Shown: one piece after another, positions 26,225-28,530 of the stretch
Layout of the letters: every line of letters begins with the position of its first letter
How positions within the stretch are numbered: the first letter of the stretch is position 1
The notes under the pieces: model-generated
What the model saw: only the letters and a program-made list of their open reading frames with translations
Databases searched by the model: none
What the model was told of the DNA's origin: nothing
Position numbers and translations under genes: made by a program
Origin: Myxococcaceae bacterium
GTDB taxonomy: Bacteria > Myxococcota > Myxococcia > Myxococcales > Myxococcaceae
NCBI GenBank assembly: GCA_044223505.1
Contig: JBGALX010000012.1
Span: 154,174 to 218,173 of the forward strand
Length of the DNA stretch: 64,000 bases
Direction of reading: 5' to 3'

Positions 26225-26300
26225 CTGTACCGCGGCTCACCTGAATTGAACGCACGGTGCGTGCCACGCCGCATTCAACTCAGGCGAGCGGCGGGTCTAG
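26225..26300 (-). ncRNA. Conserved stop-adjacent 3'-flank element. It forms a strand-specific 18-bp stem and is a candidate terminator or structured 3' UTR. A second copy lies at 33219.
   Basis: Blocks shared with 33219..33276: ccgcggctcacc, ttgaacgca, ggtgcg, ggcgagcggcgggtctag. The stem GCUCGCCUGAGUUGAAUG / CGUUCAAUUCAGGUGAGC contains three G·U pairs on the minus transcript. On the plus strand those positions are A·C mismatches. Confidence 0.45.
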
Positions 26301-27787
26301 AACCGCTCGTCGGCGTCGCCCGGCCCGGTCGGCGGCAGCGGCGGCGGCACCTGGGCGGCCGGCTGCGGCGGAGTCGCCGGCAGAATCGCCGAGAAGCGCG
26401 AGCCCTTGCCCATCTCGCTCGTGACGCGCACGACGCCGCCGTGACCTTCGACGAACGACTTCACGATCGAGAGGCCCAGGCCCGCGCCGCCGAACTCGCG
26501 CGTGCTCGACGAGTCGACCTGGTAGAACGACTGGAAGATCTTGTCGAACTGATCAGACGGAATTCCCACGCCCGAGTCTTCGACGATGATCCGGTAGCCC
26601 TCGCCGTTCAGCTCGGGCTGCGGAGCGATCTCGGACAAGAACGCCGTCACCTTGCCGCCCTTGCCGGTGAACTTCACCGCGTTCGCGAGCAGGTTCACCA
26701 CCACCTGCCGCAGCCGGTCTTTGTCGGCGAACGCGCGCACCTTCAGACCGTCGGGGATCTTCGCCTCGACCACGACGCCCTTCTTCGCGGCCTGCGGCTT
26801 CACCGACGAGATGCTCGACTGCACCACCTCTGAGATCTCGACCGGCTCGAACGCCAGCCGCACCTTGCCCGCTTCGATCTGCGAGATGTCGAGAATCGAC
26901 GAGATCAGCTTCAGCAGCGTCTCGCCCTTCTCCATGATGGTGCGGACGTAGTCGACCTGCTCCTGGTTCATCGGCCCGGCCAGGCCCTCGGCGAGCATCT
27001 CGCTGTACCCGATGATCGAGGTCAGCGGCGTGCGCAGCTCGTGGCTCACCGTCGCGAGGAACGCCGACTTGAGCCGGTCGAGCTCCTTCAGCTTCGTGTT
27101 CATCGCCTCGAGCTGGTGGTTGCGCGACTCGAGCTCGCGGTTCGACTCGAGCGTCGCCTCGACGTGCATCTGCGACGTCAGGAACATCTTCTGGCCCGAC
27201 GCCACCATCGTGTCGAACAGCGTCGCGAAGTGCAGAATCACCTTCACGACCGCCGACTCGGGAGCCCGCCGGACCTTCTCGACCAGCGCCTGCGCGTTCG
27301 TGACGTCGAGCCCCGTCGAGATGTCGAGCAGCGACTGGGGGAAGTCCTTCATGTCTTCGGGCAGAAACGGCCCGAACACGATGCGGCCCATCGGGTCGCC
27401 TTCCCAGTTCACCGGCATGATGAGGTACCGCAGCCCCGTGAAGCACGGCACCGTCACCATGCCCCGCGCCTTCGGAGCGTCATCGTCGGTCAGCACCGGC
27501 AGCCGCGCGCCGTGCGTCGTCGCGATCGGCCCGTCTTTCACGCGCGCCACCGTCGCCGTGCAGCGCGAGCGGCCCTCGGCGAACGAGAAGACGTAGCCGC
27601 AGAAGTCGCCGTTGCCGATCTTGATGTCTGCGAGCTTGCTGCCCCGCTCGTCGAAGACCTTGATGCCGACGCGGTACAGCTCGACGAAGTTCTTCACCAC
27701 CTCGGTGAAGCCCGGCACGTCGAGCATCTCCGACAGCGACAGCCGCCGCTGGAGAATCGAGATGCCCCGTGGCGGAGTCTGCGCCAT
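26297..27787 (-). CDS. Sensor histidine kinase with an uncharacterised ~200-aa N-terminal cytoplasmic sensor domain.
   Basis: H-box FLATVSHELRTPL. N/G boxes VVNLLANAVKFT, EDSGVGIP, GGAGLGLSIV. ATG overlaps the TAA of the upstream GTPase gene by 1 nt. Confidence 0.85.
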   Translation of the reverse strand: MAQTPPRGISILQRRLSLSEMLDVPGFTEVVKNFVELYRVGIKVFDERGSKLADIKIGNGDFCGYVFSFAEGRSRCTATVARVKDGPIATTHGARLPVLTDDDAPKARGMVTVPCFTGLRYLIMPVNWEGDPMGRIVFGPFLPEDMKDFPQSLLDISTGLDVTNAQALVEKVRRAPESAVVKVILHFATLFDTMVASGQKMFLTSQMHVEATLESNRELESRNHQLEAMNTKLKELDRLKSAFLATVSHELRTPLTSIIGYSEMLAEGLAGPMNQEQVDYVRTIMEKGETLLKLISSILDISQIEAGKVRLAFEPVEISEVVQSSISSVKPQAAKKGVVVEAKIPDGLKVRAFADKDRLRQVVVNLLANAVKFTGKGGKVTAFLSEIAPQPELNGEGYRIIVEDSGVGIPSDQFDKIFQSFYQVDSSSTREFGGAGLGLSIVKSFVEGHGGVVRVTSEMGKGSRFSAILPATPPQPAAQVPPPLPPTGPGDADERF

Positions 27788-28530
27788 TACCGTGCGACCG
27801 CCTTCTTCGACGGGTAGTCGCGCTCGAGCTCGGTGCCGCTCGTGTCGACGTTCGCGAAGATCTGCGTGAGGAACTCTTTCTCGGTCAGGCCGATGTTCTT
27901 CGTCAGGTTCGCTCGCGCCTCGAGCGAGCGGTAGGCCACCTGCAGCACCGCGTGCAGCGTCTCGAGCACCCCGATGCCGCGCACCGCGATCGCGCCGATG
28001 ACGGGCTCCTTGCCCTTCTTGCGCGTCTCTTCGATCTCGGCGTCGCTCTTCGTGTCGGGCAGATCGCGCTTGTTGAACTGGATGACGAGCGGCACCTCGG
28101 CCGGGTCGAGCCCGTTCTCGCGCATGTTCTCGTACAGGTTCTTCCAGTACGCGTTGTTCTCGGGCCCTGCTGATCGGCGGCTGTCGGCGATGAACGCCAC
28201 GGCGTCAGCGCCCTGCAAGACGATGCGCCGGGTCGCGTTGTGGATCACCTGCCCCGGCACCGTGAACAGCTTCACCTTCACTTTGAAGCCAGACGACGTC
28301 GAAAAGAAGACGGGCAGCAGGTCGAAGAAGAGCGTGCGGTCGTCGTGCGTCTCGACGGTGAGCAGCCGACCCCGAACGTCCGGGCTCGTGCGCTGATGCA
28401 CCATCTGGAGGTTCGTCGTTTTCCCAGAGAGGCCCGGCCCGTAGTAGACGATCTTGACCGTCAGCTCTCGCTGAGCGTGGTTCAGTTGCACGGCTCCGAA
28501 TTTGCCCCACAACGCTGCGTCCGTCAGCAA
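27787..28530 (-). CDS. MglA-family small Ras-like GTPase of 247 aa, with N- and C-terminal extensions.
   Basis: KIVYYGPGLSGKTTNL (G1), DRTLFFDLLP (switch I), TVPGQ (G3), NKRD (G4). These align closely with M. xanthus MglA as recalled. Confidence 0.85.
   Translation of the reverse strand: MLTDAALWGKFGAVQLNHAQRELTVKIVYYGPGLSGKTTNLQMVHQRTSPDVRGRLLTVETHDDRTLFFDLLPVFFSTSSGFKVKVKLFTVPGQVIHNATRRIVLQGADAVAFIADSRRSAGPENNAYWKNLYENMRENGLDPAEVPLVIQFNKRDLPDTKSDAEIEETRKKGKEPVIGAIAVRGIGVLETLHAVLQVAYRSLEARANLTKNIGLTEKEFLTQIFANVDTSGTELERDYPSKKAVAR

Follow-up and report, generated by a model that had tools for sequence, protein, structure and literature searches.

Overlapping genes for a SofG-type GTPase and a PocR-domain histidine kinase in Myxococcaceae and related lineages

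We examined a 64-kb stretch of DNA (64,000 nucleotides in full, hereafter the window) from contig JBGALX010000012.1 of a Myxococcaceae bacterium, concentrating on two minus-strand genes that encode an MglA-family small GTPase and a sensor histidine kinase. Judged from their sequences, the two genes are almost certainly an orthologue of the Myxococcus xanthus GTPase gene sofG (MXAN_6703) and a kinase gene of the MXAN_6702 type. The stop codon of the first overlaps the start codon of the second, and the arrangement is retained across close relatives, in Anaeromyxobacter and in most divergent SofG-like loci that we could recover from metagenomes. We consider it most likely that the two proteins form a dedicated GTPase–kinase signalling pair for type IV pilus polarity.

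The GTPase and its relation to SofG

The GTPase open reading frame spans positions 27787–28530 of the minus strand and ends in a TAA at 27787–27789. The maximal frame, from a TTG at 28530, encodes 247 residues. The true start, however, is probably the GTG at 28491 and not this TTG, giving a protein of 234 residues, because the conserved protein begins there and matches the M. xanthus N-terminus MQLNHAQREL. Alignment to MglA (6h17/5ymx) places the G domain at 27922–28491 of the minus strand (residues 14–203 of the 247-residue frame), and residues 16–203 match the solved M. xanthus and Thermus thermophilus MglA proteins with E values of 8.6e-49 to 1.3e-48.

The original prediction, made from the sequence alone, listed the MglA hallmarks GPGLSGKTT, TLFFD, TVPGQ and NKRD, and we found all four aligned with their MglA equivalents. 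The P-loop GPGLSGKTT, the G3 motif TVPGQ and the G4 motif NKRD match column for column, and the switch I sequence DDRTLFFD aligns with TDRTLFFD of MglA and keeps the intrinsic arginine. Within G3, threonine replaces aspartate and the catalytic glutamine is present. These G-domain motifs are invariant in 73 orthologues and in a 36-sequence alignment that includes Anaeromyxobacteraceae. The switch I arginine (R52), for which the literature on MglA points to a catalytic role as an arginine finger, is invariant in the same 36-sequence alignment. G-domain similarity, the P-loop, G3 and G4 motifs and the switch I arginine thus all place the protein in Group 1 of the MglA family. A database search returned 7999 relatives at E<=1e-20, and the best 120 of these 7999 are 78–100% identical to the window GTPase and 233–290 residues long.

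Exactly three MglA-family genes of M. xanthus – MXAN_1925, MXAN_2693 and MXAN_6703 – are listed in Table S2 of Wuichet and Sogaard-Andersen 2014. According to that study MXAN_1925 occurs with MglB, MXAN_2693 encodes a PATAN-linked protein of 372 residues, and MXAN_6703 is the sole orphan; SofG is described as an orphan Group 1 member of 239 residues. The same authors noted that Group 1 neighbourhoods ‘vary widely’ and left the orphans without further analysis. The window GTPase is 74% identical to MXAN_6703 (SofG, 239 residues) over the full length of its 234 residues (bit score 365), versus 43% identity to MglA (bit score 173), and on this basis we assign it to SofG. In our own data the M. 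xanthus orthologue (locus L069) is a 239-residue protein whose cluster contains the entry ‘MglA-like protein [M. xanthus DK 1622]’. A divergent GNAT gene lies upstream of it, followed by genes for two PilT-like ATPases, one of which has a long disordered N-terminus. Because these neighbours match the published descriptions of MXAN_6704 as a GNAT and of MXAN_6705/6706 as PilT paralogues, with MXAN_6705 extended at its N-terminus, we equate this orthologue with MXAN_6703. Greater similarity to MXAN_6703 than to MglA, a conserved extension of ~40 residues and a GNAT–sofG–kinase locus are all features that the window shares with the SofG group. We therefore rejected the idea that the gene encodes a novel MglA paralogue or a new kind of MglA, since it is an orthologue of an orphan that has already been described.

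The original prediction also noted about 50 extra C-terminal residues. An extension does exist, and it is slightly shorter, at about 44 residues past the G domain (27790–27921, minus strand). Its core, G-L-x-E-x-E-F-L-x-x-I-F, is kept in the 73 orthologues and in Anaeromyxobacteraceae, and E204, E206, F207, F212 and G219 (numbered in the 234-residue protein) are invariant across Myxococcaceae and Anaeromyxobacteraceae. The motif can also be recognised in the divergent cluster representatives P0302, P0304, P0312, P0321 and P0332. An AlphaFold model of the GTPase has a predicted local distance difference test score (pLDDT) of 86–95 over residues 181–230; it predicts that two short helices pack against the G domain and that the last ~10 residues are disordered. 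On this model, the extension is a folded addition specific to the SofG clade.

An mglB gene within four genes is typical of the MglA family, though not universal in it. In the window no roadblock/LC7 gene was found among the genes that flank the GTPase gene, and no second MglA-like gene was found within the 64 kb. The region from ~24.0 to 33.1 kb contains no gap of 300 nucleotides or more between genes and therefore has no room for a roadblock gene, in agreement with the reported absence of an adjacent one. Lacking such a neighbour, the GTPase counts as an orphan by the definition of Wuichet and Sogaard-Andersen, and so does SofG.

Published work already accounts for this absence, as it does for the GTPase itself. 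Passages in two later papers (PMC4085708, PMC4316618) that report the findings of Bulyha et al. 2013 describe SofG as an M. xanthus MglA paralogue that shuttles on the bactofilin BacP; the same passages state that SofG binds BacP and is required for polar placement of the pilus ATPases PilB and PilT. A GTPase-activating protein (GAP) for SofG was not known in 2014 (Wuichet and Sogaard-Andersen). That view is superseded: according to passages in two papers that cite Kanade et al. 2021, MglB, whose gene lies elsewhere, also serves as a GAP for SofG. The absence of an adjacent roadblock gene is explained by this report of MglB acting in trans. The description of the kinase as standing in place of an MglB partner is thus accurate in that no mglB adjoins the GTPase gene, and misleading in that MglB is reported to serve SofG all the same. 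The related proposal that the kinase must supply a missing GAP is weakened by the same report.

An overlapping kinase gene and its conservation

The kinase gene (26297–27787, minus strand) encodes a 496-residue protein. Its N-terminal ~200 residues had been described as an undescribed domain, a claim that we rejected: residues 20–198 (27194–27730, minus strand) match the PocR sensory domain (PF10114, E 3.4e-17), with 63.1 bits against a gathering cut-off of 23.9. The remainder is a conventional core consisting of a HisKA domain, which mediates dimerization and histidine phosphotransfer (DHp; residues 240–307, 26867–27070, minus strand; PF00512, E 1.7e-20; 73.3 bits, cut-off 26.9), and a HATPase_c domain (residues 355–472, 26372–26725, minus strand; PF02518, E 1.1e-28; 100.3 bits, cut-off 26.4). 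The sequences SHELRTPL, NLLANAVKFT, EDSGVGI, FYQVD and GGAGLGLSIVK are conserved in 73 orthologues, where the H-box, SHELRTPL, is invariant and the N, G1, F and G2 boxes are essentially so. By these sequence features the kinase is catalytically intact. Pfam detected no receiver domain in it. We found no stretch resembling a membrane helix (the highest Kyte–Doolittle mean over 19 residues is 1.53), and the kinase is therefore expected to be soluble and cytoplasmic. It is 60–63% identical to an M. xanthus protein whose 90%-identity cluster includes a DK1622 entry, and by position this orthologue is MXAN_6702 (ABF90613.1, Q1CXQ4).

At its C-terminus, following a variable proline-rich linker of ~25 residues, the window kinase ends in the tripeptide E-R-F (residues 494–496; 26300–26308, minus strand; consensus D-R-F-COOH). 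All 73 complete Myxococcaceae and Archangiaceae orthologues end in [D/E]RF (DRF in 70 and ERF in 3), and Anaeromyxobacter kinases lack this ending. The tail looks like a docking peptide and, by analogy, recalls the LPxR tail of conservon kinases.

The two genes meet at a TAATG (27785–27789, minus strand), where the plus strand reads gccattaccg. The GTPase TAA (27789–27787) and the kinase ATG (27787–27785) share base 27787, so the 1-nucleotide overlap that had been reported can be read directly in the sequence as a junction of the translational-coupling type. To place this junction in context we assembled a set of close relatives by a scan that kept one genome per species, which gave 80 loci (L001–L080), all from Myxococcaceae or Archangiaceae. 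The set includes cultured Myxococcus, Corallococcus, Pyxidicoccus and Citreicoccus, and the loci closest to the window come from metagenome-assembled genomes of Archangiaceae and Myxococcaceae (94–97% identity). PocR-like sequence directly follows the GTPase gene in 80 of the 80 loci, with the kinase core also visible in the 77 whose sequence reaches that far. The junction is a 4-nucleotide NTGA overlap in 72 loci by script and a GTGA in 3 further loci by eye; a 1-nucleotide overlap of the window type occurs in 2, and gaps of 2–5 nucleotides in 2. Stop and start codons therefore overlap in about 77 of 80 loci. Recurring as it does in every related locus, the arrangement is not a chance juxtaposition.

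The pair is also found well beyond this set. Anaeromyxobacteraceae GTPases (L081, L083) are 55–57% identical to the window protein, and we observed the same pair with an ATGA overlap in Anaeromyxobacter, including the complete genome of A. oryzae, and on two other Anaeromyxobacteraceae contigs. A homology search with the PocR region alone returned 31 matches, mostly fragments, which supplied the alignment used for modelling and three further distant contigs in which the GTPase gene lies next to fragmented kinase genes. We then scanned metagenomes with divergent SofG-like sequences and retained 34 SofG-like loci whose downstream sequence extends for 1 kb or more. A kinase gene lies directly downstream in 30–31 of these 34. 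The kinases fall into three classes: 19 have a PocR N-terminus (confirmed by Pfam for L092), 6 have a short N-terminus and 5 are of a different HisKA type. In the exceptions we found RibBA, a PilZ protein or no recognisable gene after the GTPase gene; the PilZ-domain protein, at ~4770–5270 of L132, occupies the kinase’s place after a divergent SofG-like GTPase. Loci that differ in start codon and kinase class still keep the codon overlap. No kinase gene lies downstream at any of eight MglA-like loci, whose GTPases have long C-terminal extensions. The claim of an MglA-family GTPase translationally coupled to a histidine kinase is thus borne out by an overlap that is both present and conserved, and the loss of neighbourhood that would have counted against it was not seen among the close relatives, in Anaeromyxobacter or in most divergent SofG-like loci.

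The third conserved gene of the locus encodes a GNAT acetyltransferase (28643–29176, plus strand; Pfam Acetyltransf_1, E 1.2e-14), the orthologue of MXAN_6704. It is transcribed divergently from sofG, about 0.7 kb upstream, in 78 of the 80 close loci. The intergenic region (28531–28642) is presumed, from its position, to hold both promoters; a scan of the operon for terminators and for promoters of the sigma-70 consensus yielded nothing useful in this high-GC DNA. In M. xanthus the GNAT MXAN_6704 is described as needed for aggregation and sporulation, and a transposon study groups its fitness profile with those of pilT and frzS. The GNAT may act in the same pathway as sofG. PilT paralogues adjoin the locus in only 13 of 80 loci, in Myxococcus and Corallococcus, and are absent from the window.

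Downstream of the kinase gene, many lineages carry thiL, which encodes the housekeeping enzyme thiamine-phosphate kinase (TIGR01379, 287 bits) and directly follows the kinase at L092, L093, L094, L097, L100, L103, L114, L117, L118, L121, L123 and L126. We had considered whether the pair includes a third conserved signalling component and rejected this, since the recurrent downstream gene is ThiL. A thiL match is present in 18 of the 80 close loci, in many of them kilobases away (as in Myxococcus), and thiL is absent from the 64-kb window. An ancestral order sofG–kinase–thiL appears to have been broken only at thiL. In Anaeromyxobacter (L084, 9086–14696; L085, 9130–14696) the pair is followed by thiL and then by a complete chemosensory cluster encoding a methyl-accepting chemotaxis protein, CheW, a CheY-like protein, CheA and CheC/CheX, and a PAS–HATPase_c protein is encoded divergently upstream. 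Taken together, the PilT paralogues, the che cluster and the fitness grouping of the GNAT provide a motility context that lends modest support to a functional link.

The kinase N-terminus and readings of the pairing

Against Pfam at E<=10, PocR is the sole match of the kinase N-terminus. A profile search of this region against sensory and roadblock families had been proposed; it found PocR, and neither Roadblock/LC7 nor GAF nor PAS was matched. Three near-invariant cysteines lie within the PocR domain (~27441–27601) – C63 (GDFC), C76 (GRSRCT) and C115 (VPCFTGLRY) – and are retained from Myxococcaceae to Anaeromyxobacter, a pattern that suggests a metal, iron–sulphur (Fe-S) or redox site. An AlphaFold model of kinase residues 1–216, which rests on 22 sequences (pLDDT 83, predicted template modelling score 0.77), shows a helix followed by two strands, further helices, three strands and finally a long signalling helix. 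Profile comparison with hhalign related the PocR class to the short class at 95.6%, over residues 10–53 of the window kinase, and the short class to the third class at 96.8%. Kinases of the short form have no cysteine-bearing helices, and the element common to the coupled kinases is therefore the N-terminal helix with its two strands, not the putative ligand pocket.

We propose that the kinase would be a dedicated signalling partner of SofG, produced in a fixed ratio to it. As a dimer, the kinase would bind SofG through the conserved N-terminal module of one helix and two strands, which we nominate for this role as the part common to all three kinase classes beside SofG-like GTPases. The nucleotide state of SofG would modulate kinase autophosphorylation, the cysteine-bearing PocR pocket would add a small-molecule, redox or metal input, and the kinase would signal to an unlinked response regulator acting on type IV pilus polarity. 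We hold it to be somewhat probable that SofG and the kinase are directly linked in function in some way. That the GTPase acts on the kinase, in this direction, is put forward only tentatively. A bolder and speculative extension is that SofG-type GTPases and their downstream kinases represent a widespread, undescribed minimal ‘G protein plus kinase’ device, in which the PocR-derived module is a roadblock-like domain that binds the G protein, and the nucleotide state of the GTPase and the activity of the kinase directly control each other. Such a device would connect pilus polarity with two-component signalling and would give PocR domains a new role.

Several observations weigh against a dedicated pair. 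The conservation of thiL demonstrates that adjacency can persist without a signalling link. The divergent metagenome loci may all come from Myxococcota, which would make the breadth of the pairing less impressive. Mirror-tree distance correlations are higher for GTPase and kinase (0.88–0.90) than for GTPase and GNAT (0.75), with partial correlations of 0.71–0.75, but this support is weak, as common descent cannot be cleanly removed from the signal and the control, GNAT, is both shorter and noisier. We found no response-regulator gene near the pair. A literature search for the tags MXAN_6702 and MXAN_6703 returned no match, although the original SofG paper, which lay outside that search, may mention the kinase gene. 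Finally, PocR domains are an established class of sensor, and the three conserved cysteines point to sensing of a ligand, redox state or metal more than to docking of a GTPase.

In one alternative the kinase works upstream of SofG or in parallel with it, without contact: PocR would sense a small molecule or redox state, pilus or polarity proteins would be under the control of an unlinked response regulator that the kinase phosphorylates, and co-transcription would merely ensure joint production. Pfam describes PocR as a sensor family found on kinases and regulators, and the three conserved cysteines, the intact catalytic core without a receiver domain and the che cluster adjoining the pair in Anaeromyxobacter all fit such a role. 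So does the fact that the response regulators RomR, FrzS and AglZ are known partners of the paralogue MglA. We nevertheless regard this alternative as unlikely, since codon overlap maintained over deep divergence is more usual for proteins that function in a set ratio, and since the short kinase classes, which lack the cysteine insert, remain coupled and retain the helix and two strands at the N-terminus.

A second alternative, decidedly unlikely in our assessment, casts the kinase N-terminus as a roadblock-like domain that regulates SofG, serving as its GAP or its exchange factor. The two PocR modules of a kinase dimer would grip one SofG in the manner of MglB and reposition SofG’s own arginine and glutamine, and the operon would be a two-gene, fused version of a conservon. 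Histidine kinases are dimeric, as is MglB. Nine of the top 14 matches in a fold search with the PocR model were roadblock-type domains (Rag C-terminal domains, LAMTOR2, MP1/p14, a Streptomyces Robl_LC7 domain and an Asgard roadblock); the five strands predicted by the model (two plus three) match the number in roadblock domains, and the conserved coupling suits a regulator of this kind. Against this, the best Foldseek matches were weakly scoring CodY GAF and PAS domains, and the top 50 contained no roadblock. The N-terminus has no Robl_LC7 match at E<=10, and the PocR region has no sequence relative among PDB structures at that threshold. The model is built on only 22 sequences, the conserved cysteines suit a sensor pocket, and passages in the literature already report MglB as the SofG GAP. 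Our literature searches found nothing linking PocR with small GTPases or roadblock folds. From the model, the PocR domain appears to fall in a broad alpha/beta fold group (GAF/PAS/profilin/roadblock), and a specific roadblock assignment is not justified.

It is very improbable that the pairing is simply inherited gene order with no specific functional link – as might be argued from the comparably deep conservation of housekeeping thiL just downstream and from the possibility that all sampled lineages belong to one phylum – because thiL, through loss or displacement, no longer adjoins the kinase in the window or in most Myxococcaceae loci while the kinase has never been displaced (80/80), the overlap survives changes of start codon and kinase class, and MglA-like paralogues have no downstream kinase (0/8).

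Related systems and other genes of the window

The closest characterised counterpart of the window GTPase is SofG (MXAN_6703) itself, which has the same catalytic motifs and extension, a divergent GNAT gene upstream and a PocR-kinase gene downstream. The Myxococcus locus differs from the window in its flanking PilT paralogues. The MglA/MglB system of M. xanthus and T. thermophilus shares with the window GTPase its fold, intrinsic arginine finger, glutamine and G3 threonine, and MglB is reported, in the passages cited above, to act on SofG too. The window GTPase is nevertheless only 43% identical to MglA and adds the C-terminal extension, and in place of an mglB within four genes it has a coupled downstream kinase gene.

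Other MglA-like proteins appeared in our searches. After the SofG-like ones, most of the best 50%-identity cluster representatives (P0306, P0311, P0313 and later) are 300–800 residues long and combine an N-terminal MglA-type G domain with a long C-terminal extension. They form a large and apparently little-studied group that probably includes the MXAN_2693-like proteins. At L139 and L162, MglA-like proteins of 543–673 residues, closer to MglA than to SofG, have a different recurrent partner: a MerR-family regulator of ~153 residues (confirmed by Pfam at L139 and assigned by sequence similarity at L162) whose gene overlaps the GTPase stop codon by 4 nucleotides.

Actinobacterial conservons (CvnA kinase, CvnB roadblock protein, CvnC and CvnD GTPase) resemble the window in combining an MglA-family GTPase and a histidine kinase in one operon without a response regulator, and in a kinase C-terminus that carries an arginine-containing motif, LPxR in conservons and DRF in the Myxococcaceae and Archangiaceae kinases. 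The resemblance does not extend further. A conservon has four genes, including a separate roadblock gene and CvnC, whereas the window has two; the conservon GTPase belongs to Group 2, whereas the window GTPase is Group 1-like with its own arginine finger; and the conservon kinase is membrane-bound with a HAMP domain, whereas the window kinase is soluble, carries PocR and ends in ERF. The phyla differ as well. In Group 1 Rup neighbourhoods (Wuichet and Sogaard-Andersen 2014) the gene of a small Ras-superfamily GTPase likewise lies near that of an output protein of two-component type (either a histidine kinase or a diguanylate cyclase) whose N-terminal region, according to the same study, may act on the GTPase. 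Rup, however, belongs to a different GTPase family and lacks the catalytic glutamine, and its four-gene neighbourhood encodes coiled-coil and OmpA-domain proteins and no PocR.

The other genes flanking the pair encode a thioesterase (25421–26215, plus strand), an Rce1-like protease, a membrane protein, an aspartyl-protease-like protein, an ATLF-like protein and proteins without family matches. The ATLF-like protein (31660–33126, minus strand; 488 residues) has an anthrax-lethal-factor-like metalloprotease domain (HEIGHALD) and repeated EF-hand-like GNGDG motifs. Elsewhere in the window, at 7462–7877, 19858–20173, 24163–24415 and 57238–57499, coding regions contain in-frame tandem repeats with periods of 15–54 nucleotides. 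The repeats are highly regular – for example, 19–22 copies of an 18-mer at 95% identity – and encode Gly/Ala/Thr/Pro-rich linkers, probably in secreted proteins or lipoproteins.

SofG is among the few characterised bacterial Ras-like polarity GTPases. The passages on SofG that we found in the literature leave unexplained the signals that it receives and its confinement to a single subpolar bactofilin patch. The pairing is no surprise in itself, yet it offers a testable clue to the way in which SofG connects to signalling. Pairing of a GTPase with a kinase has previously been described mainly for actinobacterial conservons and Rup systems, and a dedicated SofG–kinase pair, if confirmed, would add a compact two-gene version in Myxococcota and related lineages. 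The conserved, coupled and apparently unstudied kinase is a concrete candidate for the missing input or output of SofG.

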